This document shows, one piece after another, positions 531 to 64,000 of a stretch of 64,000 nt of DNA. The position numbers were made by a program, and so were the translations under genes. The stretch's first letter is position 1. Each line of letters starts with the position of its first letter. The stretch lies in assembly GCA_964016885.1 (NCBI GenBank), contig OZ024741.1:367164001-367228000 (forward strand). Reading direction: 5' to 3'. Source of the DNA: Eledone cirrhosa (taxonomy: Eukaryota). Below the pieces are notes generated by a model that made no database searches, was not told the DNA's origin, and worked only from the letters and a program-made list of their open reading frames with translations.

Positions 531-1468
531 TGCTCCTTCAGTTCCTAATGCCAAACACATTACAGCATGTACTGGTTATCTTTCTCATGACACCACCACT
601 ACCACCTTACAGAGTGAACTGGGTGCTTTTTTTTGTCATGGTACCAGATTATATATATATATAATACAACTAGCATAACTTAGTTAAAGTTAGAAAAAAA
701 AACTAAACAATTCTTATTCGTTCCATAAAGCAATGGATTGTGTACTAGTAAAACCCATAATAAGCTACAATGCAGACAATGGTGTATGCTAACATACATA
801 TGGCCTATGGTTGACACGAGCTACAAACATAAGGGGGATAATTCAATATTTGTTAAACTGTCAAGCTAATTTAATCAATTTTACAATAACTGTACAGCCG
901 AAGTCTGTTTCTATATTCATACGCGTGTGCGACTTAATCTGAGTTTAAATTGTGTTTGTTCTTATGTCCCATGAATTAGCGCTTCAACAAAAAGAAACCA
1001 TTGAAACCAGTACTAGACTTGAAAAATTAAATTCTGATTTATGTATGTACCCATAACTCCTGATGGAGTCATATGAAGCATTGTTGTAACATACAGCGAG
1101 TCTTGGGCAATTTTTAAACCTAATGGAGCCCATCACTTCTCTAGATCTAAACACAGCCAATTTCTTCTAGAGAAGGAGAATGCAATAAAGAGGAAGTAAG
1201 AAAGGAATAGGGAGGAAGAATGCAACTTAATATTGGACAGGTACATTTTTTGTCAACCTAAAAACAATGAAAGGCAAAATTGGCCTGAGTGAAATATGAA
1301 CTCAGAACATAGAATGCTGGAATGAATATTGCAAAACATTCCATCAGACGTTCTAATGACTGCCATTTTACCACATTACTGGAGTCAATATGATAGTGCC
1401 CTTTATCGCAGTGCCCCAGCATGGCTACAATCAAATTACTAAAACCAATAAAAGAATTATAAGCTTAC

Positions 1469-1679
1469 TTTTCTCTTCACGTGTTTCGTCAATGAGAACC
1501 AAATCTACATCAGTTGGTGCTTTGTCAAGAGCAGGGTAGGTGTTGAAAAGGTTAGCTACAAATGCTAAATTGAGTTTGTAATTATGATTGACAACATCAT
1601 TTGGTGTTATGAAACTACGGCAACCAATTTTATTAGCTTCTTGTAGCATACACTCTGCTTTTTTATGAAGATCATTGAC
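1469..1679 (-). CDS. PLS3: Plastin exon (CH2 end): [70 protein letters not shown]
   Basis: 211 nt, phase 0/1; acceptor aatctccag, donor gtaagc; overlaps ORF 1431..1760. Confidence 0.95.
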
Positions 1680-4600
1680 CTGGAGATTAAACAAACAGAA
1701 CAACTTTGGTGACAAAACAAAATAAAAAATGTGGATAAATATTGATGTGGGATAGCACATTTGAGCTTTTTGATACCAACCCTCCCAAAACAGTGTCAGG
1801 GTCTATGAAAAAAAAAACCCACTTGTTTAAAAAGGCTCTTTTAAAATTAAAATCATCACCATTGATTTTACCTTGATATTTCCATGTTGGATGTATTGGA
1901 TGGGACTTTTGAGACAGCTGGATACTCTTCTAGATACTAACACTTGTAGTGATTTCTCATGACACACAGAGATATGGTGTACCTATTCTAAACCAGATTC
2001 ACATGACTGAAATGTTCCAACATAATTTTATATAAGAACCTTTTAAATTATGTTACACTAACCATCTTAATGAAATAATTAATAATTTTGTAAATCCCTT
2101 CAAATGTTTCATTAATTAAATAATTTATAATGAAATACAATGTATCTGGTGTCCTGTGTCCCCAAACCACCTCCATAATATGATCAAGATGGAGATGGCC
2201 CCCTGCAAGAATAAGCTGGATTGGCTATCCTCTGGAGTTACACATTTGCTATTCTATTTACCAGGGCCATGAAGCAAAAATCTACCTGATGTTCTGGAAG
2301 TCAACTAGATTATATATCTATATTATACACACACCATAATACTTATAATATACCAAGTTTATTATAAGAACCAACAGCTTTAGAATATGAAGAAACAAAC
2401 AATATTAATGGAGGCACGTGGCTTAGTGGTTAGAGCATTGCCCTTGCAATCGAAAGGTTGTGAGTTCAATTCTCAGACCGGGTGATGTGTTGTTTCTTTG
2501 AGCAAGGCACTTTATTTCACATTGCTCCAGTTTACTCAGCTGTAAAAATGAGATGATAGGGACTGGGGTCCTTATCATTCCACTGCAAAAAAGCACCCAG
2601 CACTCACTGTAAATGAGGTTGGTGTTAGGAAGGGCATCCAGCTGTAGAAATCAAGCCAGAATCAGTTCCCGTCCCACCCTTGCAAGCAGGGAAAAGTGGA
2701 CGTAAAATGAAATGATGATGATGATGATGATTAGAGAACAACAATTAGTAAAACATAAAAAGTCTTGACATTTTGAATACCAGTCCTTCATTAGAAGGAT
2801 ATAGAGAAATTTGGAGATATTTTGGAAAAGAAGAAAATAGCAAATGAAGAAAAAATGGAAAGAGAAAAAAAATACATGTAGTAATTTCTCAGCTTTCTTA
2901 AAAAAAAATTATGTAAGTCAAGATCTCTGGCATCCTTGGTCCCTGCACTGCTGATTTTCTCTGTAAAGTTGGAAAGACGTCGGCCTGCATAAAGAGGTAA
3001 AGAGGAAGCCCCGGTGTCTCTGGCCATCCATGGTAATGCTTTTGCCATTCTGTCCGCAGGGTGTAGCTGAAGTACTGCTCAGACAGGGGTGTAGTGTCTA
3101 TACCTACCTATCTCCCTTTCTTTCATTGCTTGATCCTTCTTTTTTCTTTCCTTTTAAATTTTCTATTTTTTCTCCCTTTAATAGTGTTTTGTTTTTATTA
3201 CACACTGCTCAATTGTTTTTATACAATGTCAATGACTTTTCATGACATTGTGAGATTTTGTATATTGGATAAATAGATGTCTACTCTTTAACAAAAATGT
3301 AAACATATATATCAACTTACATGTAGAGGTTCAAGGGTGACGTGAGCATCAGTTGGAGCAATTTGGTGCAATAAATATGTGTAAGCTTCTGAATCCTGGG
3401 AAATAAAAATAAAAAAAGAAAAATCATTCACTGGTTGAATGGAATGTCACATGACCAATGTACCCAACTACTGACTTTATTGTTTGAAGCTTTGAGCAAA
3501 AATATTTTTAATTCAAGGTCACTGGACAGCAACATTCCAAGAATACTGAGAAGCAAAGTTTTGAAGCTACTGCATGGCAACATTTCAAAGAAACTGAGAG
3601 GCAACATTTTAAAGCTACTGTATGGCAACATTTCAAGGCTACTGAACAGAAACGTTTCAAAGCTATTATGTAGCAACATTTCAAAGCTACTATGTAGCAA
3701 CATTTCAAAGAAACCATGTAGCAACATTTCAAAGAAACCATGTAGCAGCATTTCAAATAAACTATGTAGCAGCATTTCAAATAAACTATGTAGCAGCATT
3801 TCAAAGCTACTATGTAGCAACATTTCAAAGCTACTATGTAGCAACATTTCAAAGCTACTTCAGCAGGGAAAATGGCCTTAAAATATTTGTAGGTTAATTT
3901 CATGTCACTAACAGAATGCCACAGAAAATTAGATTTTTAAAAAGTGGTGAAAGGAAAACTCTGGTCTGCAGTCTCATGAAAGGGAGACAATTAAAATTAA
4001 ATGAAATTTACACAGGTTTGGCTGGCCTCCTATGAGATTTCATCTTACAATAGGTTTCCCAGTCCTATCAACACTCTACATATTGTTTTTCCTACAGATG
4101 TTTTTCCTTTGAGATGCTAACCTAACCTATACAGGTTAGCATCTCAAAGCAGGTTTCTTAGGTGTTTTAATAACATAGGCTCCAGTCCTATCATGAAAAG
4201 AAGCAACATAAAATGAAGTGTCTTGCTCAAGAACACATACTGTCACACTCTTATGGTAACCATTTTGGGTTGACACAATGGAACCCCACGGAGATCAACA
4301 CAACACTGTGAAGAACTGTAAAGCACTAGCCCCCTACAGACAACTGACGCTGCACACCAGGTCTGAACATGGAAAAGCCAAACTCCCACTGTCCTCGTCG
4401 CCATCTCTCACCCTCCCCATCTCACTGTATTATGAGCAAATGGGATCCCACGTGCTGGCCGCCCCACGGCCCTGGTGGACAGAATGGAGAAGGCATTTCC
4501 CCAAAGGATGGTAAGGGAGATACGCTGGAAGAGCCACTCCATCTTGCGAGGCGCACACCTGCGGCTAGTCAGCTCAGCGCCGAATCTAACACTAACCACT

Positions 4601-7600
4601 ATACCACATGACATCATAGGTAACCTAATGAATGAATGGTTAATTTTACAAACCTTTATGTCTTCAGCAAGATTGTTAATCTGAAGGTTGGTGCCGGCAT
4701 TACGAAGATGATAGTTCACCCAACGCACCAATATTTGTTCTGGAGTCAACTTCTGAAAGTCTTCAGGTTCCTCTCCATCTTCCAATAGTAGAAGCAGGCC
4801 AGGGTGATGTTTTAAGTCAATGTCACTCAGAAGACCAATCTAGAAAATGAAAAAAAATTTAGATTTAAAAATTACACCTGCTTTAATATTGCAAATCAAA
4901 ATTGCATTTACTATATATTTTATATATATATATATATATATAGGTAATACGTATTTATATATATATGTATACATATATATGCATATATATATATATGTAA
5001 CACATATTTACATAAAATTTGTAAATAAAATAAAAAATGATTTTGCATAATGTGCTCCTTTTACAGGCTGTCAGGAAAAGGATGATAGTTTTGTTTACTA
5101 CAATCCGTCTCGATGGCCTCACTAGCCTGATTAACGCATTCTCAATACTGAACCACTTCATTCCATTCCTAAGAACTTTTTATTCTCTTCTTAGTAAATA
5201 GTGTATCATACTTTTTTCCTTTGTGAATTTTTTTACCCATGCTAGCATGGAAGATGGACGTGATGATACATGGTTAGTGAAATAAATGATAAGCAAGCAT
5301 TTTAATAAAACAACTATAAAAATTAAAGTTGAATTAACTTCATCGTTGCATTTTTGTATCACTATATATATTTATATGTATATATTTAAAGATATTTTAC
5401 TTAACGCCTATGACAATAAAGAACAGATAAAGACATTCAATGTAGAAGAGCACTGGGAGTTCCTAAAAAATAACTTACTAAAGGCGACGGATGAGATTTG
5501 TGGCTGGAGTAAGGCCACAGGCAGGAGGAGAGTGACTTTGTGGTGGAACAATAAAGTAGATGAGGCAGTTAAGGCCAAGAGACAGGCATGAAAAGAATGG
5601 AAGAACGGGAGAAGCAGGGTACATTACAGAGAGACCAGGAGGGAAGCTAAGCGACAAGTATACTTAGCTAGGAGGGAAGCAGAGGATAGAAAATTCAAGC
5701 ATGTTTTGCAACGTGAGGACCAGAAACAGGAGGTGTTCAAGATTGTGAGGCAGCGTGTCAGAGAGAATTGTGATGTCATTGGAGAGAAGTGTATCCAGAA
5801 TGATAAAGGTGAGCTTGCCCTCACAAGTGCTGAGAAGAAAGATGCGTGGAAGAGCGATTATGATAGATTACTAAATGAGGAGAACGCATGGGAAGAAAAG
5901 ACCCTACCCCAAGTAGACCCTATAGAGGGACCAGCAGTACAAGTAAGCAGCAGCAGCGTAGTAAGGCAATCAAAGATATGAAGACGGGGAAGGCAACCGG
6001 TCCATCAGGTATAGCTGCCGAGATGCTGAAGGCATCTGGGTCGGTAGGTCACACCATAACCACACATATTGTTAACCAGGTAATACTAGAAGGTGTCATA
6101 CCAAAGGATTGGTGCAGTAGCATCATTGTCAACTGCTACAAAGGTAAAGGTGATGCACTAGATAGAGGAAAATATAGAGGTATAAAGCTGATGGACCAGG
6201 TCATGAAAGTGACAGAAAGAGTTATAGCACAGTTGATTAGGGACCGGGTGAAACTAGATGAGATGCAATTTGGGTTTGTACCAGGAAGAGGCACCACTGA
6301 TGCCCTCTTCCTTGTGAGGCAGTTACAGGAAAAGTACCTAGCTAAAAGTAAGCCACTCTACCTGGCATTCATCGATCTCGAGAAAGCCTTTGACAGAGTT
6401 CCCCGTGCTATAATCTGGTGGACTCTTAGAAAACTAGGAGTAGATGAATAGCTTATGAAAGCTGTACAAGCCATGTATAGGGGAGCAGTCAGCAAAGTTA
6501 GGATTAGCAATGAGTATAGCGAGGAATTTAGCGTACAGGTTGGGGTCCACCAGGGCTCTGTTCTTAGCCCTCTCCTGTTCATCATAGTCCTGCAGGCAAT
6601 AACGGAGGAGTTTAAGACCGGATGCCCATGGGAACTCCTGTATGCAGATGACCTTGCACTTATAGCTGAATCTATGGTAAACTAGAGAAGAAATTCCAAA
6701 CTTGAAAGCAGGGACTAGAAAAAAAGGGTCTCAAAGTCAACCTGACAAAGACTAATATCCTTGTAAGTAGACAGCTAGAAACAGTAGACCGAATTAGCAG
6801 CGGAGGTGGGTGTTCGAAAAGTACAATAACTAGGGTAAGAACAGGATGGAAGAAGTTCAGGGAGCTACTGCCACTGATAGCTGCAAAAGGCTTTTCCCTC
6901 AAAATGAAAGGCAGACTGTATGATGCGTGTATACGAACAGCAATGTTACATGGTAGTGAGACCTGGGCGCTGTCTGTGTAAGACTTGCTTAGATTAGAAA
7001 GAAACGAAGCCTGCATGCTCCGATGGATGTGTAATAGTAATATACGCGAATGGCAAAGCATAAATGAATTGAGAGAGAGACTGAGCATAAGAGGAATCAA
7101 ATGCTGTGTGCAGGAGAGGCGGTTGCGTTGGTATGGACATGTGATGCGTGTGAAGGATGACAGCTGCATAAAAAGGTGCAGAGCACTAGAAGTTGATGGA
7201 AACTGCGGAGTGGGGCGACTCAAGAAGACCTGGGATGAGGTGATAAAAGCCGACCTTACACAATTACACCTCTCAAAGGAGATGACACACGACCGTGACC
7301 TCTGGCGTCACACAGTAATACAGAAGACCCGACCCCCCACGGGTACAAGCCGAAGCTGAAGCATATAGACAATATCCCCCACACCCTCCCACTGCAAAGT
7401 GGTCGTGGAGGTGCCACGGCAAAAAAGCACCCAGCCCACACTGTAAAGTGGACATGTAGGCGCCATGGAAAAAAGCATCCAGCACTCACTGTAAATGAGG
7501 TTGGTGTTAGGAAGGGCATCTAGCTGTAGAAATCAAGCCAGAATCAGTTCCCGTATGAGCAAGGCATGGTCAGCCGACTGGCTGCGGCCCACAACAGGAC

Positions 7601-10600
7601 AACTTGTCTAACCCATGCTAGCATGAAAGAGCGGACGTAAAACAGTGATAATGATGATATATAGATATATATATATAGGTATATAGACATCTCTATCTCT
7701 ATATATCTAGAGAGAAAGAGAGAGGGGGTGGAGGGAGAGTGAGAAAATATATAGATAGATAGATAGATAGATACAAACATACATATAATCACACAGACAC
7801 ACACTGCTTTTAGTTCATGATAGACCACTGAAATACTAAAAACAGGCACTGTTTATGTATGAACAAGTATTTTGTCCAACTTATCTATTACAGACATATA
7901 TTGACCCTCACTCAAGTACCATCCAATTTAAACAGGTTTTGCCACAATTACATCATTTCCTTATTAGTCACATAACCACATTTTTGGGGTGCAGACATGG
8001 CTGTGTGGTTAAGATATTCCATTAGCAGCCATATGGTATCAGCTTCAATCCTAGGGCCCAAGTTTGTTGACCTCCCTATAGTGGCCCCTGGGAACTGATC
8101 TCTGATCACAATTAGGCAAACGACAACAATCTGAGACAATCATAGGAGGTTCAATCCTACAGTGCAGCACTTTGGTTTTAAGCAAAGCCTTGTGAATTAA
8201 ATTTGGTAAATGCAAACTGTGTGGAGGACTGTCAGAGAGAGAATTCCTATTGTTGGGTGCTACACTTAACCTGTCACCCAGCATAATCCTTCTAATTCCA
8301 AACTACATGAAACTGACCCTTGATTATTCAATACAAAGTCACAGGAAAACTTTACCCTTTGGATACCAAACCACTTTAAACTGTTCATGGTCCTCTGATA
8401 CAAACTTTACATTATTGTTCTATGCAAGAACCTTTGTTATGTTTCAAACACCAGCTTAATAATTAGAAAGTTAGTTACATTATTAACATCCCAACTGCCA
8501 CCAAATTCTTGATTATTTTCAAAATGTGTCTTTCAGTAGAAATATGTTAACAAAAGAATTAAGAAATTGATTCTTTTAATCCTTCTGATACCAAACTTTC
8601 TGAAACCAGCCCTGTTCAACTATATAAAACTGCCAGTTTAAAAATGTTTGTACTTTTATTAAAATTATGATAAACAGTTTTAATATAAGAACTTTTGTTA
8701 AGTAATGTTCCAAACATCAACTTACTAATAAAAATGTTAGTTATTTTATTAATTCCTCAAAATGTTTAATTACTTTTGAAATTAATTGGGACACATTGTC
8801 AAGTTGAGTGAAAATAACCCTGTCAAGTAAGCATGGAAAATGGAGATAGATCGCAGAAAACTTGTTGGAAGGACCAGAACACAGAACGATAACAGAAAAT
8901 ATCTGTTAAGAAAGGGATTAACACAGGAGGATGTTTTGGAAAGGGTTAGCCGGACAGAATGTGTCAATTTACAAAATCCACTTTACCCAGCAACATTGCT
9001 GAGTAAAGAGGATGATAATGATGACATAGGCTGTGTACTTCGATAGAAATACAGTAATGAAAGGATTAAAATAAATTGAGCAAGGAAACAGAAGACTTAC
9101 TCTAATGACTTGCCACAATAAGCCAAGAACCAGGTGATGAGTTCCAGCCTGAATGTCTTCCGCACCGATGTTGACGATGTTGCAACCAATGGACCGGGCA
9201 GAGTTTAATGCCAACACCAAGTTCTCGTGTTTGCGGTAGACATTTGGATTGTTTTTGTTGATTCCTCTTTCATCGATGGTGTCTGGACAGGTTATATTGA
9301 TGAGTTTACTGAAATAGAAAACACCTCACAGTGATGACCTATTCAATGAAACGGGGATGTAGGAGAATGACCAATTCAATGAGACAGGTGGATGTGAGAA
9401 GATGTTAAGTCAATGAGAGAGAGAGGGATGTGAGAAGATGTTAAGTCAATGAGACAGACATGTTGGAAATCAGTGAAGGCTACTGAAAGTAAACAAATAT
9501 CATTGAAGGAAACTAACGATGGATCTCCATCAGTTTTGACAATGAGTTTTCTAGTTGTTCTATCAAGAGAATAACCTACTTGTGAAATTAACATGTAAGT
9601 GGCTGAGCATTTCACTAACATGCGTACCCTTAATGCAGTTTTCAGGGAGATTCAGCATAACAGTGAATTACAGGTAAAGTCTATCCAACAGACTTCCTAA
9701 TAGCTTCTCTCTACTCAATTTCACTCAAAAGACACAGGTTGACCCAAGGCTAAGATAAATGATACGTATCCAATATGACACTAAGATCAAACCCAGGACC
9801 CAATGATTGTAAAGTAAACTTCTTAACCATTCAGCCAAATATCATCAAGGCAGAATTGTAAGAGCTCTAATAAAGTTGTTTAGCTCTCTGCACTCAGACT
9901 TTGAAATCCACCAAGATCAAATTTGCTTTGCTTTTCATCCTTTCAAGATTGATAAATAAAGAGCAGGACAGAAAGACAGAGTACAGGAATTGTTAGATTG
10001 TTGGACATTATGCTTTGCAGTATTATGTTATGACCTTTGACATCACTGGTACCAAGCTATATTGGCCTTTCACAACATTAATGGCATGGAAAGAGGTGAC
10101 TGCTGGCCTTCCACAAAACATTTTACCCAGGCTTTGTGCTTTAAAGAAGTAAACCCACGGTCAATCAGTTATGATAAGCTCTGGCCAAAGGGGGCCCTTT
10201 CAAATTCAATCACACAGCTGTATTGACCTTTGCTTTTCCCTTAGACAACATTGGTGGTATGGAGAAGGGAGACTTATGTGCATGGTTAACTGCTGGTCTT
10301 CCTCAAAACTCCTCGCCCAGGAACTTTCCTGGTGCGCATCCATTGACTTACAAAACATATGGAGGTCCTAGATCAGCAATACTTGCTGACTACTCATTAA
10401 CAAGTATGGAAAAATAGATGTAAACATGACAATGATTGTCCTAACCTGTAAAAGTAACATTCCATCACTCCTTGCAATGGTATTTCAGCTCATAATGATT
10501 TGCTTAACTATTTAATTAACTGGTGTAAAAGCACAAGGTAATTAAGCAGTTATGCAAATTATTATGAGTTTAAAGCACTAGATATCTGAGAAAGTCAGGT

Positions 10601-17176: not shown

Positions 17177-17594
17177 GTGTGTGTGTGTGTAAAAGGTAAA
17201 CAGAAATAACAACATAATCGGTACAGTATATGGAAGGAATATATTAGGTTAATGCTTGAAATAGCAGGAAGAGGGTCTTAAAGTTTCGGACACTAGTCCT
17301 TCATCAGAAGAAAGAATGAAAAATTAGAAAGATACACACACATACATAAATGTATACATCGGCTGATTAGCCTAATTTGCAAACCAAGCAATTTTACGGC
17401 TGATAATGTGACTGTATCTGACAATGTTGACAATATTATGGACATTGGAACTTTGTTGTTCCAAATAAACTGTAGTGGCCATATTAGAAAATATGAGAAG
17501 ATTCTAATATAGAAATTGAAACTGGAAAGTTGTCATGTCTTCAGCAACACATATATATAAAAGAGCTATTTTTCATATATACAACTATACATAT

Positions 17595-23719: not shown

Positions 23720-26700
23720 GAGAGTAGTGTGAAATAAAGCCTTTACAATAGTATATAGAGAGTAGTGTGAAATAAAGCCTTTACAATAGTATATAGAGCG
23801 TAATGTGAAATAAAGCCTTTACAATAGTATATAGAGAGTAGTGTGAAATAAAGCCTTTACAATAGTATATAGAGAGTAGTGTGAAATAAAGCCTTTACGA
23901 TAGTATATAGAGAGTAGTGTGAAATAAAGCCTTTACAATAGCATATAGAGAGTAATGTGAAATAAAGCCTTTACAATAGTATATAGAGCGTAATGTGAAA
24001 TAAAGCCTTTACAATAGTATATAGAGAGGAGTGTGAAATAAAGCCTTTACAATAGTATATAGAGAGTAGTGTGAAATAAAGCCTGTACAATAGTATATAG
24101 AGAATAGTGTGAAATAAAGCCTTTACAATAGTATATAGAGAGTAATGTGAAATAAAGCCTTTACAATAGTATATAGAGAGTAGTGTGAAATAAAGCCTTT
24201 ACAATAGTATATAGAGCGTAATGTGAAATAAAGCCTTTACAATAGTATATAGAGAGTAGTGTGAAATAAAGCCTGTACAATAGTATATAGAGAGTAATGT
24301 GAAATAAAGCCTGTACAATAGTATATAGAGAGTAGTGTGAAATAAAGCCTTTACAATAGTATATAGAGAGTAGTGTGAAATAAAGCCTTTACAATAGTAT
24401 ATAGAGAGTAGTGTGAAATAAAGCCTTTACAATAGCATATAGAGAGTAGTGTGAAATAAAGCCTGTACAATAGTATATAGAGAGTAGTGTGAAATAAAGC
24501 CTTTACAATAGTATATAGAGAGTAGTGTGAAATAAAGCCTTTACAATAGTATATAGAGAGTAGTGTGAAATAAAGCCTTTACAATAGTATATAGAGAGTA
24601 GTGTGAAATAAAGCCTGTACAATAGTATATAGAGAGTAGTGTGAAATAAAGCCTGTACAATAGTATATAGAGAGTAGTGTGAAATAAAGCCTGTACAATA
24701 GTATATAGAGAGGAGTGTGAAATAAAGCCTGTACAATAGTATATAGAGAGTAGTGTGAAATAAAGCTTGTACAATAGTATATAGAGTAGTGTGAAATAAA
24801 GCCTTTACAATAGTATATAGAGAGTAATGTGAAATAAAGCCTTTACAATAGTATATAAAGAGTAGTGTGAAATAAAGCCTTTACAATAGTATATAGAGAG
24901 TAGTGTGAAATAAAGCCTTTACAATAGTATATAGAGAGTAGTGTGAAATAAAGCCTGTACAATAGTATATAGAGAGTAATGTGAAATAAAGCCTGTACAA
25001 TAGTATATAGAGAGTAGTGTGAAATAAAGCCTGTACAATAGTATATAGAGTAGTGTGAAATAAAGCCTTTACAATAGTATATAGAGAGTAATGTGAAATA
25101 AAGCCTGTACAATAGTATATAGAGAGTAGTGTGAAATAAAGCCTGTACAATAGTATATAGAGTAGTGTGAAATAAAGCCTTTACAATAGTATATAGAGAG
25201 TAATGTGAAATAAAGCCTTTACAATAGTATATAGAGAGTAGTGTGAAATAAAGCCTTTACAATAGTATATAGAGAGTAGTGTGAAATAAAGCCTTTACAA
25301 TAGTATATAGAGAGTAGTGTGAAATAAAGCCTTTACAATAGTATATAGAGAGTAGTGTGAAATAAAGCCTGTACAATAGTATATAGAGAGTAATGTGAAA
25401 TAAAGCCTTTACAATAGTATATAGAGAGTAGTGTGAAATAAAGCCTGTACAATAGTATATAGAGAGTAGTGTGAAATAAAGCCTGTACAATAGTATATAG
25501 AGAGTAGTGTGAAATAAAGCCTGTACAATAATATATAGAGAGTAATGTGAAATAAAGCCTTTACAACAGTATATAGAGAGTAATGTGAAATAAAGCCTTT
25601 ACAATAGTATATAGAGAGTAGTGTGAAATAAAGCCTGTACAATAGTCTATAGAGAGTAGTGTGAAATAAAGCCTTTACAATAGTATATAGAGAGTAGTGT
25701 GAAATAAAGCCTGTACAATAGTATATAGAGAGTAGTGTGAAATAAAGCCTTTACAATAGTATATAGAGAGTAGTGTGAAATAAAGCCTTTACAATAGTAT
25801 ATAGAGAGTAGTGTGAAATAAAGCCTGTACAATAGTATATAGAGAGTAGTGTGAAATAAAGCCTTTACAATAGTATATAGAGAGTAATGTGAAATAAAGC
25901 CTTTACAATAGTATATAGAGAGTAGTGTGAAATAAAGCCTGTACAATAGTCTATAGAGAGTAGTGTGAAATAAAGCCTTTACAATAGTATATAGAGAGTA
26001 GTGTGAAATAAAGCCTGTACAATAGTATATAGAGAGTAGTGTGAAATAAAGCCTTTACAATAGTATATAGAGAGTAATGTGAAATAAAGCCTTTACAATA
26101 GTATATAGAGAGTAGTGTGAAATAAAGCCTGTACAATAGTATATAGAGAGTAGTGTGAAATAAAGCCTGTACAATAGTATATAGAGAGTAGTGTGAAATA
26201 AAGCCTTTACAATAGTATATAGAGAGTAGTGTGAAATAAAGCCTGTACAATAGTCTATAGAGAGTAGTGTGAAATAAAGCCTTTACAATAGTATATAGAG
26301 AGTAGTGTGAAATAAAGCCTTTACAATAGTATATAGAGAGTAATGTGAAATAAAGCCTGTACAATAGTATATAGACAGTAATGTGAAATAAAGCCTGTAC
26401 AATAGTATATAGACAGTAATGTGAAATAAAGCCTTTACAATAGTATATAGAGAGTAGTGTGAAATAAAGCCTTTACAATAGTATATAGAGAGTAGTGTGA
26501 AATAAAGCCTGTACAATAGTCTATAGAGAGTAGTGTGAAATAAAGCCTTTACAATAGTATATAGAGAGTAATGTGAAATAAAGCCTTTACAATAGTATAT
26601 AGAGAGTAATGTGAAATAAAGCCTGTACAATAGTATATAGACAGTAATGTGAAATAAAGCCTTTACAATAGTATATAGTGAGTAATGTGAAATAAAGCCT

Positions 26701-28591
26701 TTACAATAGTATATAGAGAGTAATGTGAAATAAAGCCTTTACAATAGTATATAGAGAGTAATGTGAAATAAAGCCTGTACAATAGTATATAGAGAGTAGT
26801 GTGAAATAAAGCCTGTACAATAGTATATAGAGAGTAGTGTGAAATAAAGCCTTTACAATAGTATATAGAGAGTAATGTGAAATAAAGCCTTTACAATAGT
26901 ATATAGAGAGTAATGTGAAATAAAGCCTTTACAATAGTCTATAGAGAGTAGTGTGAAATAAAGCCTTTACAATAGTATATAGAGCGTAATGTGAAATAAA
27001 GCCTTTACAATAGTATATAGAGAGTAGTGTGAAATAAAGCCTGTACAATAGTCTATAGAGAGTAGTGTGAAATAAAGCCTTTACAATAGTATATAGAGAG
27101 TAGTGTGAAATAAAGCTTGTACAATAGTATATAGAGAGTAGTGTGAAATAAAGCCTTTACAATAGTATATAGAGAGTAGTGTGAAATAAAGCCTTTACAA
27201 TAGTATATAGAGAGTAGTGTAAAATAAAGCCTTTACAATAGTATATAGAGAGTAGTGTGAAATAAAGCCTGTACAATAGTATATAGAGAGTAGTGTGAAA
27301 TAAAGCCTTTACAATAGTATATAGAGAGTAGTGTGAAATAAAGCCTGTACAATAGTATATAGAGAGTAGTGTGAAATAAAGCCTGTACAATAGTATATAG
27401 AGAGTAATGTGAAATAAAGCCTGTACAATAGTATATAGAGAGTAATGTGAAATAAAGCCTTTACAATAGTCTATAGAGAGTAGTGTGAAATAAAGCCTTT
27501 ACAATAGTATATAGAGCGTAATGTGAAATAAAGCCTTTACAATAGTATATAGAGAGTAGTGTGAAATAAAGCCTGTACAATAGTCTATAGAGAGTAGTGT
27601 GAAATAAAGCCTGTACAATAGTATATAGAGAGTAGTGTGAAATAAAGCCTTTACAATAGTATATAGAGAGTAGTGTGAAATAAAGCCTGTACAATAGTAT
27701 ATAGAGAGTAGTGTGAAATAAAGCCTTTACAATAGTATATAGAGAGTAGTGTGAAATAAAGCCTTTACAATAGTATATAGAGAGGAGTGTGAAATAAAGC
27801 CTTTACAATAGTATATAGAGAGTAGTGTGAAATAAAGCCGTTACAATAGTATATAGAGAGTAATGTGAAATAAAGCCTTTACAATAGTATATAGAGAGTA
27901 GTGTGAAATAAAGCCTTTACAATAGTATATAGAGAGGAGTGTGAAATAAAGCCTTTACAATAGTATATAGAGAGTAGTGTGAAATAAAGCCTTTACAATA
28001 GTATATAGAGAGTAGTGTGAAATAAAGCCTTTACAATAGTATATAGAGAGTAATGTGAAATAAAGCCTTTACAATAGTATATAGAGAGGAGTGTGAAATA
28101 AAGCCTTTACAATAGCATATAGAGAGTAGTGTGAAATAAAGCCTTTACAATAGTATATAGAGAGTAATGTGAAATAAAGCCGTTACAATAGTATATAGAG
28201 AGTAATGTGAAATAAAGCCTTTACAATAGTATATAGAGAGTAGTGTGAAATAAAGCCTTTACAATAGTATATAGAGAGTAGTGTGAAATAAAGCCTTTAC
28301 AATAGTATATAGAGAGTAGTGTGAAATAAAGCCTTTACAATAGTATATAGAGAGTAATGTGAAATAAAGCCGTTACAATAGTATATAGAGAGTAATGTGA
28401 AATAAAGCCTTTACAATAGTATATAGAGAGTAGTGTGAAATAAAGCCTTTACAATAGTATATAGAGAGGAGTGTGAAATAAAGCCTTTACAATAGTATAT
28501 AGAGAGTAATGTGAAATAAAGCCTTTACAATAGTATATAGAGAGGAGTGTGAAATAAAGCCTTTACAATAGTATATAGAGCGTAATGTGAA
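23720..28591. repeat. 38-bp satellite, ~128 copies (GAGAGTAGTGTGAAATAAAGCCTTTACAATAGTATATA), nested inside a MITE
   Basis: Direct reading; MITE left arm 23585-23719 and right terminus 28581-28606 flank the array. Confidence 0.97.
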
Positions 28592-47240: not shown

Positions 47241-48106
47241 CATAAAAACACCTCTACAGGCATAAAATGTAGATACGAAAGAGGTACTCACATAACCATA
47301 GTGGCCGTATTTCAGGTTGAGGAGGGGTGGGGGTAGAGTGGGGAGGAGGTATAGGGGCCAATAGGGGGAGGTGGTTTTTAGCCATCGGGCTTTAACACTG
47401 GCTTAAAGTGTTTGAAAGTTGCAAAGTTCTTGTGTGCATGCAGTTCGGGCAGTGTTCAGAGAGTTTGTTCAGTAGCGGGCCCGTGGCGAATAAAATTTCG
47501 TAGCTCTCTGAAATACAAAGGTCGCAGCCCTTGTGTCCTCCGTTGTAAGAGCGCGCTTTCTGGAGTATTTTCCATTTAAGCGTGAAGGGGGTGGAGTTCC
47601 TTTTGAGGTCCCAAACGTAGGAGGCGAGTGTTGTCTGATTTGATTTATCCGGTCTTCTGAAGGAGTGGGTATGGGCATACCAACGGGTCTTAAAGTTGTT
47701 GGAGGTCATGCCGATGTAAGTTTTTTTGCAATCCTCGGTGCCTGAGATGACATCGCATTTGTATACGATATCATTTGTGAGGCATTTGTTTTCAAGTGGG
47801 CATGCTTCCTTATTTAGGCAATTACATAGAGCCCCAGTCCGGGGATTGGTTTCGGAGGTGGTTGGCTTATTTAATTTTTTAGAATTGTGGTTGGCTATAT
47901 TCCTAGCTAGGTTAGGTGTGGTGGAGTAAGACAGTCTTATTGTGTTCTTATTAAAGATGGTGTAGTACCTATGTTGTATGGGGAAGTGTAATTTCAGTAA
48001 AGTGAAGAAAATCCTAGCTATTGGAGTAGATACCTCTCTATTGAAGGGAGGGTTGTACCAGCTAATCTGCCTATGTCTATTCCTCCTCTGCAATCTTGCG
48101 GTGGTT
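47240..48106 (-). mobile_element. Penelope-like retroelement 3' fragment (Naiad-like; RT thumb, Cys-rich linker, GIY-YIG endonuclease), 5'-truncated
   Basis: ORF 47392..48093 is uninterrupted: WYNPPF, IFNKNTIRLSYS, CNC....CPL..KC, IVYKC...YIGMT..FKTRW..H..SF, CDLCISE, LNK; bounded by TA microsatellite on both sides. Confidence 0.88.
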
Positions 48107-48397: not shown

Positions 48398-48540
48398 ATG
48401 TGTGTATGTATATGTATGTATATAAATATATTATATATATGTGTGTGTGTTTTTGTGTGTATATGTGTATGTGTATGTGTGTTTATGGTTGCGCGTGAGT
48501 GTGTGAGTGAGTATGTTTTTTTGTGAATGTGTGTGTTGAT
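48107..48540. repeat. (TA)n/(TG)n microsatellite
   Basis: Direct reading. Confidence 0.93.
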
Positions 48541-48977
48541 TTTTGGCATATAGTTGATTAGTTTAAGAGAAGTTCGAAGATAATTGTAAGATATGCACTC
48601 AGTATTTTGAATCTGTCTAAAGAATTCTCTAAACCTTTGTCACTTAGTAGAACCTTAATGATTTTAGCTTTTAAAGAATCTCCATTTTCTTTAATTCTAT
48701 CGACCATGACTGACCCCCCACTGATCTTATAGACATCTGTTAGCTTAAGAGAAACTTAATGACAAGGAATGGTATGCCATCCGGAACCTGTTTATAGAAT
48801 TCTGTCTGCCCTTGTTACTCTAAAAACATAAATAAATAAAAATAAACTATAGCTTTGTAGAATTAGCTTTTAATGAATTCCCTTTTCTATCAACCAATGA
48901 CCTACACCCATCCCACTCCCCACCCTCTCCTACCACTTGTAGAGACCTATAAATACCATTTTTATTTTTTGATACCC

Positions 48978-49028
48978 AGATTCCTGATGTTTTCTAAAGA
49001 ATGAAACAGTTCTAGTCCTGTAGAATCT
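48978..49028 (+). ncRNA. Type I hammerhead ribozyme-like motif with one core substitution
   Basis: AGATTC-CTGATGT-TTTCTAAAGAAT-GAA-ACAG-TTCTAGTC-CTGT-A-GAATCT: 6-bp stem I, 4-bp stem III, GUA triplet; core reads CUGAUGU instead of CUGAUGA. Confidence 0.65.
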
Positions 49029-49108
49029 CATCTATATTAAAACTTTTATACTCTGCTATGTATTGAGTACCTTACTGTGGTTACCTCCGATTCAACCCGG
49101 AATAACGT

Positions 49109-50384
49109 ACATACATATATATACATACATATATATACATATATACATACATATATATATATATATATATACATATATATACATATATATATACACATAT
49201 ATATACATATATATACACATATATATACATATATATATACATATATATATACATATATATATACATATATATATACATATATATATACATATATATATAC
49301 ATATATATATACATATATACATATATATATACATATATATATATACATATATATATATATACATATATATATACATACATATATATATACATACATATAT
49401 ATATACATATATATATATACATACATATATATATACATATATATATATACATATATATACATATATATATATACATATATATATATACATATATATACAT
49501 ATATATACATATATATACATATATATATATATATACATATATATACATATATACATATATATACATATATACATATATACATATATATACATATATATAC
49601 ATATATATACATATATATACATATATATACATATATATACATATATATACATATATATACATATATACATATATATACATATATATACATATATATACAT
49701 ATATACATATATATACATATATATACATATATATACATATATATACATATATATACATATATATATACATATATACATATATATACATATATATACATAT
49801 ATATACATATACATATATATACATATATATACATATATATACATATATATACATATACATATATATACATATATATACATATATATACACATATATACAC
49901 ATATATATACATATATATACATATATATACATATATATACATATATATACATATATATACATATATATATATATACATATATACATATATATATACATAT
50001 ATATACATATATACATATATATATACATATATACATATATATACATATATATATACATATATACATATATATATACATATATACATATATATACATATAT
50101 ATATACATATATACATATATATATACATATATATACATATATATACATATATATACATATATACATATATATACATATATACATATATATACATATATAT
50201 ACATATATACATATATATACATATATACATACATATATATACATATATACATATATATACATATATACATATATATACATATATACATATATATACATAT
50301 ATACATATATATACATATATATACATATATATATACATACATATATATATACATACATATATATATATACATATATATATATAC

Positions 50385-50479
<95 letters not shown>

Positions 50480-50958
50480 CATATATATATACATATATAT
50501 ATACATATATATATATATACATATATATATACATATATATACATATATATATACATATATATACATATATATATACATATATATATACATATATATATAC
50601 ATATATATATACATATATATATACATATATATATACATATATATATACATATATATATATATACATATATATATACATATATATATATACATATATATAT
50701 ATACATATATATATACATATATATATATATACATATATATATACATATATATATACATATATATATATACATATATATATACATATATATACATATATAT
50801 ATATACATATATATATACATATACATATATATATATACATATATATATACATATATATATATATACATATATATATACATATATATACATATATATATAT
50901 ATATACATATATATATACATATATATATACATATATATATATATACATATATATATAC

Positions 50959-51009
<51 letters not shown>
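49109..51009. repeat. (TA)nCA microsatellite, ~1.9 kb
   Basis: Direct reading; 600-aa ORFs are artefacts. Confidence 0.97.
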
Positions 51010-51536
51010 CATTTAAGTAAGTGCCATACTAAGAGTGAGAAATGAAATTTCGTTTTCATTTTGTTTCAATTTATCGTTTTCGGTATGCCTGACCGATTTA
51101 ACTCACTCAATATGCAAATTAGGCTGCTCAGCCGTTAATTTTCATAAGGAAAGTATATACTTTCGAACGTTCAACTATCTGGCAGATGGGTAAACGGTGC
51201 TGATGATAGCTAACAAGCTTGAAACTAGTACATCATTCCTGTGTCAGTGTTGAACAAAAAGGTGACGTGGTTGCCTTAACACCGTATGGCATAAATTCAG
51301 GCTGTTCAGTTTGTTTACAAACGAACAAAGCGACGTTAGCACCGCTAAACTGATACGTGCATATATGTATGTGTACCTGTATGCATATGTATGTATATAT
51401 ATATATATATATATGTGCATGCTACTGTACGTCTGTATACATATATGTATGTACGTATACATGCATACTTACATTTAAGTAAGTGCCATACTAAGAGTGA
51501 GAAATGAAATTTCGTTTTCATTTTGTTTCAATTTAT
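51008..51536 (+). mobile_element. Small non-coding hammerhead-containing element: 462-nt unit plus 67-nt terminal direct repeat (PLE pLTR- or retrozyme-like)
   Basis: Exact direct repeat 51008-51074 = 51470-51536; hammerhead at 51196-51234; TA microsatellite on both sides; no credible ORF. Confidence 0.65.
51196..51234 (+). ncRNA. Minimal type I hammerhead ribozyme-like motif
   Basis: GGTG-CTGATGA-T-AGCT-AACA-AGCT-T-GAA-ACTAGT-A-CATC: intact core, palindromic stem III ACTAGT, GUA triplet, stem I GGTG/CATC. Confidence 0.72.
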
Positions 51537-51794
51537 ATATATATACATATATACACATATACACATATATATACATATATACATATACACATATATATAT
51601 ACACATATATATATACACATATATATATATACATATATATATACACATATATATATATACATATATATATACATATATATATACATATATATATATACAT
51701 ATATATATATACATATATATATATACATATATATATATACATATATATATATACATATATATATATACATATATATATATACATATATATATAC

Positions 51795-51841
<47 letters not shown>

Positions 51842-52186
51842 CATATATACATATATATACATATATATATATACATATATATATATACATATATATATAC
51901 ATATATATATATACATATATATATATACATATATATATATACATATATATATATACATATATATATATACATATATATATACATATATATATATACATAT
52001 ATATATATACATATATATATATACATATATATATACATATATATATATACATATATATATATACATATATATATATACATATATATATATACATATATAT
52101 ATATACATATATATATATACATATATATATATACATATATATATATACATATATATATATACATATATATACATATATATATATAC

Positions 52187-52233
<47 letters not shown>

Positions 52234-52548
52234 CATATATATATACATATATATATATACATATATATATATACATATATATATATACATATATATATAT
52301 ACATATATATATATACATATATACATATATATATACATATATATATACATATATATATACATATATATATACATATATACATACATATATATATACATAT
52401 ATATATACATATATACATATATATATACATATATATATACATATATATATACATATATATATACATATATATATACATATATATATACATATATATATAC
52501 ATATATATATACATATATATATACATATATATATACATATATATATAC

Positions 52549-52607
<59 letters not shown>

Positions 52608-52706
52608 CATATATATATACATATATATATATATATACATATATATATACATATATATATATATACATATATATATATACATATATATATATACATATAT
52701 ATATAC

Positions 52707-52737
<31 letters not shown>

Positions 52738-52824
52738 CATATATATATACATATATATATACATATATATATACATATATATATATATACATATATATAT
52801 ATACATATATATATACATATATAC

Positions 52825-52871
<47 letters not shown>

Positions 52872-52932
52872 CATATATATATACATATATATATACATAT
52901 ATATATACATATATATATACATATATATATAC

Positions 52933-52967
<35 letters not shown>

Positions 52968-53544
52968 CATATATATATACATATATATATACATATATAT
53001 ATATACATATATATATACATATACATATATATATACATATATATATATACATATATATATATACATATATATATATACATATATATATATATACATATAT
53101 ATATATACATATATATATATACATATATATATATACATATATATATATACATATATATATATACATATACATATATACATATATATATATACATATATAC
53201 ATATATATATATATACATATACATATATATATATACATATATATATATACATATACATATATACATATATATATATATACATATACATATATATATATAC
53301 ATATATATATATACATATATACATATATATATATACATATACATATATACATATATATATATACATATATACATATATATATATACATATATATATATAC
53401 ATATATACATATATATATATACATATACATATATATATATACATATACACATATACATATATATATATACATATACATATATACATATATATATATACAT
53501 ATATACATATACACATATACATATATATATATACATATATATAT

Positions 53545-53577
<33 letters not shown>

Positions 53578-53622
53578 TATATACATATATATATATACAT
53601 ATATATATATACATATATATAC

Positions 53623-53707
<85 letters not shown>

Positions 53708-53795
53708 CATATATATACATATATATATATACATATATATACATATATATATATACATAGAACATATACATATATATATATACATATATATATAC
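51537..53795. repeat. (TA)nCA microsatellite, ~2.26 kb
   Basis: Direct reading; 700-aa ORFs are artefacts. Confidence 0.97.
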
Positions 53796-55050
53796 CCTCA
53801 TAGAACTGGACATGAAAGGAATTTGCCCACTATACAGGAGCAAATCATGGAATAGCTTAGATAGGGCTAGACATAAGATAGGGAAGGCCACATCATGGTA
53901 CGACAACCAGAGATATCAGAGTGTCATGTTTGTGGACGCCACCCCTGGAGGGAAATTAGCTAACCAGTGTAGAAAGGCCCTGAGAAAGACCCACTTAAAA
54001 ATAAAGGTGGTAGAAAAGCCAGGAACCACCATAAAATCCCTGATCAGCAAAACCTACCCTTTTAAGAAAACCCACTGTACCAATAGGAAATGTATCATTT
54101 GTAAGGTGAACCCCCGGATAAACTGTAAAACTAGGAACGTAGTCTATAGCATAAGATGTACAGAGGGTACTTGCAGAAACATGACAACAACATACATAGG
54201 TGAGACAGCTCGTAGCATAGGTGAAAGGATAGACCAACACTGGGGGGAACTAAAAGGACGAAAAAACGGGTCAGTACTATACGAACATGCTAGACAACAA
54301 CATGACGGTAACATAGACAACATAGAAATTAGAATAATATCTAAACATAGGAATGACCCAGCAGATAGGCAAATCAGAAAGGCCAGTGAAATAGAAATTA
54401 GAAGACCAAAGCTAAACAGAAAGAATGAGTGGAACAACAACACCCAAACAAACAACACTGACCTAAGAGAAGTATAAATAAGTAAATAAAATTAAATAAA
54501 ATAAGATAAATAAATACATACACAAGCACATAAACACACACTAGTCACCCAGCAGACACAACACTATACACACTAGTCACACATCACACATAACACTATA
54601 CACACACGCAAACGCATGCACAAAGAAGACAAAATAAAATAAGATAAACAAACAAGCAAATAAATAAATAAATATATAGACAGACTGAACAAAAAAAATG
54701 GCGTAGACATACAACACAACAATGACTATAACACCACTGACGATGTTGCAGATGTGCAACGAAAGATTTATGTAAATTATGTAAACTATATATATGTCTT
54801 TGTGTCTATATTGTATCTGTATTATTTTTGACCGCCGGTCAGTCAATGGCAACATTGAGGACCGAGTAAGTTAGATCGCAGATATATATATATAAAAGAC
54901 AGCGAGAAGCGAAAACCAACCAAACAGTGAGTGTGTTCTGTTATTAATTCTGGCAATATTACGCAAATATGACCCTCCCCAAATATAACAATATCTGTTT
55001 CGACACACGATTTCATATAAAAAACCTCGCAAAACTAATTCATCGCCGCT
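53796..55050 (+). mobile_element. Penelope-like retroelement 3' fragment (GIY-YIG endonuclease plus 3' non-coding region with hammerhead), different lineage from 47240-48106
   Basis: ORF 53812..54477: [21 protein letters not shown]....CIIC, NCKTRNVVYSIRC...YIGETARSIGER..QH, LNRKNEW; flanked by TA/TACA microsatellites. Confidence 0.88.
54727..54810 (+). ncRNA. Type I hammerhead ribozyme-like motif in the PLE 3' region
   Basis: TATAACACCA-CTGACGA-T-GTTGCA-GATG-TGCAAC-GAA-AGAT...GTCT-T-TGTGTCTATA: perfect 6-bp stem II, bulged stem I, CUU triplet; same strand as the GIY-YIG ORF. Confidence 0.72.
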
Positions 55051-56380
<1,330 letters not shown>

Positions 56381-61320: not shown

Positions 61321-61605
61321 CTGATATAAAAAAAAAAGCAATGTCAGCACAGGCAGGATTTCATCTTGGGAGCAGTGATTGAGTCATTGAACTAAATAAA
61401 ACAATTAAGTACCATGTATTAAGTCACCGCCCTTTTCTCTTTCATTTTCACTATTACCCATTAATAAAGGACAGGTGCAAGTCATGTTTGGAATCAATGG
61501 GAAACTGGAGTTTATGGTAGGGTCACGTGTTTATCAGTCATCAGACACACAAACGCACACTGATACTAACTCACACACACATTGACACTAACATACACAG
61601 ACACC

Positions 61606-64000
61606 AACACACACTGGCGCTAACACACACTGGCGCTAACACACACTGGCGCTAACACACACTGGCGCTAACACACACTGGCACTAACACACACTGGCAC
61701 TAACACACACTGGCGCTAACACACACTGGCGCTAACACACACTGGCGCTAACACACACTGGCGCTAACACACACTGGCGCTAACACACACTGGCACTAAC
61801 ACACACTGGCGCTAACACACACTGGCGCTAACACACACTGGCGCTAACACACAATGGCACTAACACACACTGGCGCTAACACACACTGGCACTAACACAC
61901 ACTGGCACTAACACACACTGGCACTAACACACACTGGCACTAACACACACTGGCACTAACACACACTGGCACTAACACACACTGGCACTAACACACACTG
62001 GCACTAACACACACTGGCACTAACACACACTGGCACTAACACACACTGGCACTAACACACACTGGCACTAACTCACACTGGCACTAACTCACACTGGCGT
62101 TAACACACACTGGCACTAACACACACTGGCACTAACACACACTGGCACTAACACACACTGGCACTAACTCACACTGGCACTAACTCACACTGGCGTTAAC
62201 ACACACTGGCACTAACACACACTGGCACTAACTCACACTGGCGTTAACACACACTGGCACTAACACACACTGGCGCTAACACACACTGGCGCTAACACAC
62301 ACTGGCGCTAACACACACTGGCACTAACTCACACTGGCACTAACACACACTGGCGCTAACACACACTGGCACTAACACACACTGGCACTAACACACACTG
62401 GCGCTAACACACACTGGCGCTAACACACACTGGCACTAACACACACTGGCGCTAACACACACTGGCGCTAACACACACTGGCGCTAACACACACTGGCAC
62501 TAACACACACTGGCACTAACACACACTGGCACTAACACACACTGGCACTAACACACACTGGCGTTAACACACACTGGCGCTAACACACACTGGCACTAAC
62601 ACACACTGGCACTAACACACACTGGCACTAACACACACTGGCACTAACACACACTGGCACTAACACACACTGGCACTAACACACACTGGCACTAACACAC
62701 ACTGGCGTTAACACACACTGGCACTAACACACACTGGCACTAACACACACTGGCACTAACACACACTGGCGCTAACACACACTGGCACTAACACACACTG
62801 GCACTAACACACACTGGCACTAACACACACTGGCACTAACACACACTGGCACTAACACACACTGGCACTAACACACACTGGCACTAACACACACTGGCAC
62901 TAACACACACTGGCACTAACACACACTGGCACTAACACACACTGGCACTAACACACACTGGCACTAACACACACTGGCACTAACACACACTGGCACTAAC
63001 ACACACTGGCACTAACACACACTGGCACTAACACACACTGGCACTAACACACACTGGCACTAACACACACTGGCACTAACACACACTGGCACTAACACAC
63101 ACTGGCACTAACACACACTGGCACTAACACACACTAGCACTAACTCACACTGGCGTTAACACACACTGGCACTAACACACACTGGCACTAACTCACACTG
63201 GCGTTAACACACACTGGCACTAACACACACTGGCACTAACTCACACTGGCGCTAACACACACTGGCACTAACACACACTGGCACTAACACACACTGGCGC
63301 TAACACACACTGGCGCTAACACACACTGGCGCTAACACACACTGGCACTAACACACACTGGCACTAACACACACTGGCACTAACACACACTGGCACTAAC
63401 ACACACTGGCACTAACACACACTGGCGTTAACACACACTGGCACTAACACACACTGGCGTTAACACACACTGGCACTAACACACACTGGCGCTAACACAC
63501 ACTGGCGCTAACACACACTGGCGCTAACACACACTGGCACTAACACACACTGGCACTAACACACACTGGCACTAACACACACTGGCACTAACACACACTG
63601 GCACTAACACACACTGGCACTAACACACACTGGCACTAACACACACTGGCACTAACACACACTGGCGTTAACACACACTGGCGCTAACACACACTGGCGC
63701 TAACACACACTGGCGTTAACACACACTGGCGCTAACACACACTGGCACTAACACACACTGGCACTAACACACACTGGCACTAACACACACTGGCACTAAC
63801 ACACACTGGCACTAACACACACTGGCACTAACACACACTGGCACTAACACACACTGGCACTAACACACACTGGCGTTAACACACACTGGCGCTAACACAC
63901 ACTGGCACTAACACACACTGGCGTTAACACACACTGGCGCTAACACACACTGGCACTAACACACACTGGCACTAACACACACTGGCACTAACACACACTG
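61606..64000. repeat. 16-bp satellite (TAACACACACTGGCRC), about 150 copies, continuing past the window end
   Basis: Direct reading; variants GGCAC/GGCGC/GGCGT and occasional ACTCAC. Confidence 0.97.

Follow-up and report, generated by a model that had tools for sequence, protein, structure and literature searches.

Hammerhead retrozyme units in TA microsatellites of Eledone cirrhosa: a family likely copied by a Penelope-type enzyme and likely carrying an snRNA-gene-like promoter

The island and its surroundings

The window, the whole stretch of 64,000 nucleotides of Eledone cirrhosa contig OZ024741.1 that was analyzed, contains a TA/CA tract of 4.7 kb (49108-53794) that is interrupted by a non-coding island (Table 1). 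A sequence-only reading of this DNA had described an exact 67-nt direct repeat with a period of 462 nt, a hammerhead and an island without a credible ORF between (TA)nCA tracts, and these features were verified. Positions 51008-51074 equal 51470-51536 and the identity is not extendable on either side, the hammerhead letters are present as read, and the only ATG ORFs of at least 20 aa lying wholly within the island encode 37-72 aa and run through its TA-rich part. Six long ORFs traverse the flanking TA/CA tracts and are not confined to the island. The island is unique within the window, as had been claimed, but not genome-wide, where it belongs to a very high-copy family; over 322 aligned positions, the window unit is identical to one unit of another locus (L086).

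Table 1. Coordinates of the retrozyme copy and adjoining features in the window
Feature	Position	Strand	Remarks
Left (TA)nCA target microsatellite	49108..51007	.	
Non-coding retrozyme unit of 462 nt, young subfamily	51008..51469	+	36% GC
Upstream tail copy	51008..51074	+	5' junction to microsatellite via TACAT microhomology
Octamer-containing element TATGCAAATTAG	51111..51122	+	Matches host U6/U6atac proximal promoter element
TATA box	51154..51160	+	42 nt after octamer start
Type I hammerhead (predicted), extended bulged stem I	51169..51255	+	Core 51196-51234; predicted cut 51230/51231
Internal TA/TG/CA-rich segment	51353..51462	+	Variable length; predicted long-hairpin fold
PLE-type tail between fixed ends A (~51470-51477) and B (~51531-51536)	51470..51536	+	Window copy stops at B
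Hairpin AAATGAAA/TTTCATTT inside tail	51502-51523	+	
Right (TA)nCA target microsatellite	51537..53794	.	
5'-truncated copy of young Neptune-like PLE family	53795..55052	+	Ends at its own site B; separate insertion; candidate helper family

Elsewhere in the window, calponin-homology exons on the minus strand (1431-9325) presumably belong to a plastin/fimbrin-like gene, and two minisatellites consist of 128 copies of a 38-nt repeat (23720-28591) and of about 150 copies of a 16-nt repeat (61575-64000). A 5'-truncated Penelope-like element (PLE) with a C-terminal GIY-YIG domain lies between TA tracts at 47392-48105 on the minus strand; we take it to be Hydra-like, and this label, like 'Poseidon-like' for other PLE families present, is our assumption from motifs. 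The end of another microsatellite-inserted repeat is found at 48540-49108 (plus strand), with a degenerate hammerhead near 48982 that is intact in three further loci (L064, L074, L088). On the minus strand at about 17250-17390, a hammerhead at 17307 is preceded by a stretch resembling the octamer region of the unit.

The PLE copy beyond the right microsatellite represents a family with 150 scored matches at 98-100% identity, several of them with open frames of 1,215-1,218 codons. The family has RT motifs and CX4CxxC before GIY-YIG, and it was assigned as Neptune-like because the latter arrangement is the one described in PMC8557442. This source, PMC4209133, PMC7229834, PMC2220036 and the preprint 10.64898/2026.07.22.740005 are cited here from excerpts, to which all statements about them apply. 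In Pfam, the whole ORF gave no match at E≤0.001 and its C-terminal part a sub-cutoff match to RVT_1, while a search of the PDB returned matches only at E≥0.057. The neighboring PLE family and the retrozyme have target, age and tail length in common, but no sequence.

The hammerhead and the retrozyme family

The core of the hammerhead consists of GGTG (51196-51199), CTGATGA (51200-51206), an AGCT/AGCT stem II, GAAA (51221-51224), the palindrome ACTAGT, a GTA triplet with the cut predicted after 51230, and CATC (51231-51234). A loose core pattern occurred in 48 of 20,000 dinucleotide shuffles of the unit. Stem II comprises 4 bp, the palindromic stem III 2 bp, and stem I is long and bulged. Positions 10.1-11.1 form a U.U instead of the conserved G-C, as is also seen in other hammerhead families of this genome, and the G present at 51235 in 111 of 118 units is replaced by an A in the window copy, with the loss of one stem I pair. 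The term 'minimal' used in the earlier reading does not apply: the min-HHR of PLEs lacks a helix III and has a helix II of 7-8 bp, a short helix I and G10.1-C11.1 (PMC4209133), unlike the canonical-like hammerhead of the retrozyme. The comparison with Rfam that had been proposed as a check detected no hammerhead, neither at the gathering threshold nor among 46 matches at E≤10; at both levels, the matches to the unit were AT-rich miRNA-type chance hits only.

A structure alignment was made from 30 sequences, hand-chosen from 75 distinct variants to span the subfamilies. Pairing was possible in 96% of the cells, and three pairs showed two-sided change, including a stem I G.U to U.G exchange, with stem II being invariant. 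Covariation support for the structure is moderate, as related sequences can beat a shuffle control without structure. The minimum-energy fold mispairs the core, both in the window copy (-27.3 versus -18.0 kcal/mol) and in the commonest copy (-27.4 versus -23.8 kcal/mol). Based on core and modeled stems, we predict a self-cutting type I hammerhead of canonical-like form.

Exact 32-nt hammerhead cores were counted in the 3.0-Gb assembly with two disjoint patterns, which gave 10,698 + 12,458 = 23,156 matches and 0 with the reversed-pattern controls. This number refers to cores and not to insertions: the first 100 core matches on contig C1 correspond to 53 loci, which constitute our position-ordered sample. 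Together with 40 scored BLAST matches at 95-100% identity and copies on many contigs, the counts bear out the earlier expectation of many copies and show that the sequence is anything but single-copy. Units of the family measure 420-500 nt, with T-runs of 3-12 nt, and an older subfamily is 78% identical. In the (TA)n tracts of the 53 loci, single units, head-to-tail arrays and head-to-head inversions were observed; 24 loci contained 2-6 same-strand cores, and a single array at L085 comprises at least 14 units. As expected of a retrozyme, the family is dispersed, multi-copy and non-coding, has a GC content of 36% in the window unit (below ~45-50%) and apparently no LTR structure, and contains a type I hammerhead in each short tandem unit, the window copy having one. 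The ORF with RT and GIY-YIG domains that defines an autonomous PLE is absent from the unit. The unit was also found in contigs of six public runs from four studies, which show neither insertion ends nor strand, and no RNA run was listed among them, which speaks neither for nor against transcription; three of four examined run contigs had paired changes at 51197 and 51233, and the fourth gave one short partial match.

Searching with a profile of 118 units uncovered a divergent sister retrozyme family of ~440 nt and ~52% identity, in which the full hammerhead is kept (20 loci read). Its loci are L195-L214, L047:5060-5400 and L090:1200-1500 (minus), with 2,476 first-look candidates. In the sister family, octamer-like repeats occur in tandem, as many as six in a row, the hammerhead differs and the tail is shorter, while TTACATTTA is likewise found at the 3' end site termed A below. 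At L034, a copy of the present family lies next to an unrelated tandem repeat of 310 nt (5900-8000), which has a hammerhead and an inverted arm and lacks an octamer.

Fixed 3' ends and the template of each insertion

The 3' ends of the copies were located at two sites, both joined to microsatellite: site A at about unit positions 2-8 and site B at about 62-67. In the 53 loci, 129 site A anchors were scored, of which 30 end on microsatellite, 94 continue and 5 show another outcome, while the 112 site B anchors comprise 42 that end on (TA)n, 64 that continue and 6 others. Altogether, 72 of the 83 non-continuing anchors end on microsatellite; (TA)5+ accounts for 12% of the sequence of those loci. 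Insertion into AT-rich or (TA)n DNA is likewise characteristic of PLE mobilization. In two-armed inversions with both ends callable, one A end was paired with one B end in 24 of 24 cases (0.5^24 = 6e-8). The script called 23 of these pairs, and L031 was called by inspection (A+A by script, with continuation to B upon reading); 29 of the 53 loci had no callable end pair. The intact neighboring PLE family showed A+B in all five callable cases among 16 loci, its two sites being 58-72 nt apart. Very common short PLE-type end fragments, mostly self-inverted and with fixed ends ~80 nt apart, were seen at L038, L061, L008, L031, L049, L104 and L106; at L038 and L061, such a fragment forms the second arm of a chimeric insertion with the retrozyme as first arm, and A+B pairing holds.

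In vitro, a PLE protein introduces nicks into AT-rich DNA on either strand and initiates reverse transcription at two sites inside the RNA; the genomic PLE tail is the sequence between these sites (Frangieh 2024, PMC11167929). Since the fixed ends A and B match such a pair of start sites, we regard the 67 nt as a PLE tail. A tail on one end only, with two fixed RT start sites (A+B in 24/24), is thus found on the retrozyme, as are 5' truncation, partial tandems and an inverted 5' arm; tails, inversions and a (TA)n bias have been described for PLEs (Craig 2021, PMC8557442). The two fixed ends suggest that the units were likely copied into TA microsatellites by a Penelope-type enzyme.

The 5' ends, in turn, are scattered among copies. 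Junctions at site A like that of the window number 66 genome-wide compared with 34 at a control position; 5' starts at unit position 1 are hence uncommon, and the 67 nt were rejected as an LTR or a target-site duplication. Among the 19 other loci with a window-type 5' junction that were read, 8 are tail-only and 3 are complete 1.15-mers (L183, L184, L190). Tail-only insertions (A to B, ~67 nt) stand alone in (TA)n at L175, L176, L182, L189 and L191-L194. The 5' end of the window copy at A is one microhomology truncation among many. Two elements of the sequence-only reading consequently need revision, namely the 67 nt as a 'terminal' repeat, which instead form the tail between A and B, and the 1.15-mer with its direct repeat as the standard form, which results from a fixed 3' end at B and a truncated 5' end at A. 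Its broader reading as a non-autonomous, microsatellite-targeting, hammerhead-bearing and PLE-mobilized element is supported by the copy number, the fixed ends, the A+B inversions and the (TA)n junctions.

Divergence between units amounts to 0.9%, whether they lie in the same arm or in opposite arms, compared with 3.5% between loci, and locus-private variants were common to all units of both arms (11/11 at L084 and 8/8 at L053). The low divergence within insertions and the presence of private variants in all units point to one template per insertion; a homogeneous source array with linear read-through would likewise yield shared private variants. The arms run across the ribozyme sites, which excludes a cleaved linear monomer as the template of the cut-crossing arms. 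No arm 5' end out of 52 was located within 3 nt of the cut, but this is weak evidence, as only 1.1 are expected by chance. Either a circle or an uncleaved multimer can template cut-crossing arms, and the data do not separate the two.

Putative promoter module, proposed mechanism and significance

Upstream of the hammerhead, both the unit and the sister family have ATGCAAAT and a TATA-like box. In the host, the element TATG[CG][AT]AAT[TG]AG was found at -77 to -79, with a TATA at -30, at three U6 loci and one U6atac locus, four promoters chosen post hoc from 16 U6 and 6 U6atac matches. The element was absent from the remaining 13 U6 and 5 U6atac matches, from the RNase P match and from U1/U2 promoters (0/7). 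The unit element TATGCAAATTAG at 51111 is identical to that of U6 locus L120 in 12 of 12 nt, and the spacing from octamer to TATA is 42 nt in the unit versus 46-48 nt in the host genes. The 12-nt element arose by chance in 26 of 20,000 shuffles and gave 2 unrelated hits in the 1.2 Mb scanned. An octamer-TATA module with a spacing of 40-45 nt is present in four hammerhead families (unit, sister, L214 and L207). The octamer was detected upstream of 148 of 174 family cores and 18 of 20 sister cores, and upstream of none of the unrelated hammerhead types. Taken together, the sequence comparisons suggest that the unit likely has a built-in snRNA-gene-like promoter. Because T7-T12 runs occur at 20 of 64 read-through junctions, Pol II would be the transcribing enzyme rather than Pol III. 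At TATA+30, four of six copies shown have GC|A, as in U1; by analogy with the geometry of host snRNA genes, transcription is predicted to start at A51184 (GC|A, TATA+30).

Among the host snRNA promoters (L119-L174), U1, U2 and U6 have a TATA near -30 and U1/U2 a TCAGT at about -57. In U6/U6atac, the octamer-containing element is found at about -78, a position unusually near to the gene. U6/U6atac matches without promoter elements (L143-L155, L159-L163) are embedded in repeats or TA tracts, as retro-copies would be. The U1/U2 motif TCAG(T/C) can be aligned to the unit but was left uncounted, as it appeared in 1,438 of 20,000 shuffles. The two further families have the module at 42-nt spacing (L214:230-620; L207, one copy; L075:1-120), and the L214 element equals that of U6 locus L119. 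The hammerhead tandem repeats of newt satellite 2 and of schistosomes resemble the unit in having internal promoters, of the snRNA-type Pol II kind in newt and of the Pol III kind in schistosomes (cited in PMC2220036); unlike in these satellites, the element described here matches the proximal U6/U6atac motif and TATA of the host itself and is common to four families.

On balance, we favor as the probable explanation a non-autonomous retrozyme family that likely has its own snRNA-gene-like promoter, is predicted to cut itself into unit RNAs that are likely circularized, and is likely copied into (TA)n by a PLE reverse transcriptase-endonuclease priming at two fixed sites ~60-67 nt apart. In a tandem array, octamer and TATA would start transcription near 51184, reading into the next units, and the hammerheads would cut after 51230, probably in the form of dimers that pair via the ACUAGU palindrome. 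The released monomer would contain the promoter sequence of the next unit, and a host ligase may close the circle. The PLE protein would nick both (TA)n strands and prime one cDNA at B and one at A, where the ends are observed. Each cDNA would cover part of a unit up to many units, which is the range of products found. Extension and joining of both cDNAs would lead to a head-to-head inversion that terminates at A on one side and at B on the other, and extension of one cDNA to a direct 5'-truncated copy like that of the window. Having a single ribozyme and no sequence past B, the window copy is probably a dead-end daughter.

A more far-reaching proposal, which we advance only tentatively, is that the upstream snRNA-gene promoter has become portable in a superfamily comprising four or more families of ribozyme RNAs, with each unit RNA carrying the promoter of the next unit and the promoter being rebuilt at each multi-unit insertion, and that one circle would be primed twice, at A and B, by a PLE enzyme dimer on nicked (TA)n.

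The choice of RNA template is where an alternative deserves most consideration. PLE-driven insertion could use as template a linear multimer that is transcribed from a tandem array and stays uncleaved, with a slow or passenger hammerhead and no need for a circle. In vitro, PLE insertion is independent of ribozyme cleavage, ribozyme mutants having no effect and unprocessed RNA being the main substrate (PMC11167929), and 8 of 9 Xenopus retrozyme dimers did not cleave (preprint 10.64898/2026.07.22.740005). The U.U at 10.1-11.1 and the competing fold point in the same direction, and the shared private variants fit a homogeneous source array. Conservation of core and stems, with compensatory change, across subfamilies ~22% apart and the full hammerhead kept in sister families ~52% identical count against this alternative, as do single arrays of at least 14 units (L085) and the accumulation of coral, mussel and axolotl retrozymes as circles (PMC7229834); we consider it rather unlikely.

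That the unit is a mere pseudo-LTR of an autonomous PLE, and its copies truncated or tandemized ends, seems very improbable. The end geometry is indeed that of PLEs, 24 of 57 Xenopus retrozyme families have termini that match known TEs, which are PLEs in almost every case (10.64898/2026.07.22.740005), and the unit is joined directly to a Hydra-like ORF at L044 and L047. Both joints, however, are located mid-ORF, units are arranged head to tail without an ORF between them, and among 80 loci, 25 of which have PLE ORF hits, none has the unit as terminal repeat of an ORF, so that the family is not, as the earlier reading had allowed, always attached to a coding PLE. The PLE ends observed are unrelated in sequence and lack the octamer module, and no PLE end similar to the unit or the tail was obtained by BLAST or with the unit and tail profiles over the fetched loci, where sister retrozymes were found. 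A DNA-level repeat, be it a satellite or a rolling-circle DNA element, that was dispersed through recombination among microsatellites and keeps the hammerhead as a relic is even less probable: tandem arrays and an internal TA segment able to recombine with (TA)n would suit it, but it is at odds with the polarized fixed 3' ends and scattered 5' truncation, with the A+B rule, seen in 24 of 24 inversions and also in an intact PLE family, and with the covariation of RNA structure.

The joints at L044 and L047 do not point to a helper, as the same Hydra-like end is paired with A in one locus and with B in the other. The direct joints at L038, L061, L044, L047, L060 and L081 could be template switches or later rearrangements.

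With the established metazoan non-LTR retrozymes (Cervera and de la Pena 2020, PMC7229834), the family shares non-coding, low-GC tandem units with a type I hammerhead each, monomeric to multimeric arrangement, thousands of copies and co-occurrence with PLEs; its units of 420-500 nt compare with 150-450 nt (PMC7229834) and 51-972 nt (10.64898/2026.07.22.740005). Retrozymes have been argued to derive from PLEs on the grounds of their co-occurrence and of the phylogeny of terminal repeats, in a sample composed mainly of vertebrates (Li, Clavereau and Pollet 2026, 10.64898/2026.07.22.740005). The excerpts of these two accounts treat PLE mobilization as a hypothesis and mention neither a pair of fixed ends nor A+B inversions, insertion into (TA)n or a promoter module. 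With PLEs, the family shares 5' truncation, partial tandems, an inverted 5' arm, a one-ended tail, insertion into AT-rich or (TA)n DNA and a repeat that contains a type I hammerhead, but it differs in the absence of an ORF and in a tail of ~60-67 nt instead of the usual 30-40 nt (PMC11167929; PMC8557442). Like MRC1 of Chlamys, the units would be non-coding PLE passengers with multicopy head-to-tail insertions; non-autonomous Chlamys elements as a rule have 3' ends similar to those of their autonomous partners and are without canonical hammerheads (PMC8557442), whereas no partner similarity was found here and a hammerhead is present. Our partial coverage of the literature yielded no account of this family, of the A+B rule on a retrozyme or of a shared promoter module; supplements of PMC7229834, PMC8557442 and 10.64898/2026.07.22.740005 may list related elements, and the word 'ribozyme' is absent from the main text of the Octopus vulgaris repeat paper. 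The retrozyme class is known, and the PLE two-site signature on a retrozyme and the conserved promoter module, which we did not find in print, are apparently new.

The enzyme that moves animal retrozymes and the route by which PLEs produce tails, tandems and inversions have been described as open (10.64898/2026.07.22.740005; PMC8557442; PMC7229834). In the present family, a large repeat class missed by Rfam, the PLE signature of two start sites is carried by a protein-free ribozyme RNA, and one of its copies has as neighbor a member of a young PLE family in which frames of 1,215-1,218 codons are open. A concrete explanation for why retrozymes are reported to be highly and constitutively expressed is offered by the conserved promoter module, which also has a parallel in newt satellite 2, said to have an octamer/PSE promoter. 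If the more far-reaching proposal is true, a type of promoter normally left behind by SINE-like RNAs would be restored with each multi-unit insertion, and the mechanism of PLE insertion could be read directly from the genome.
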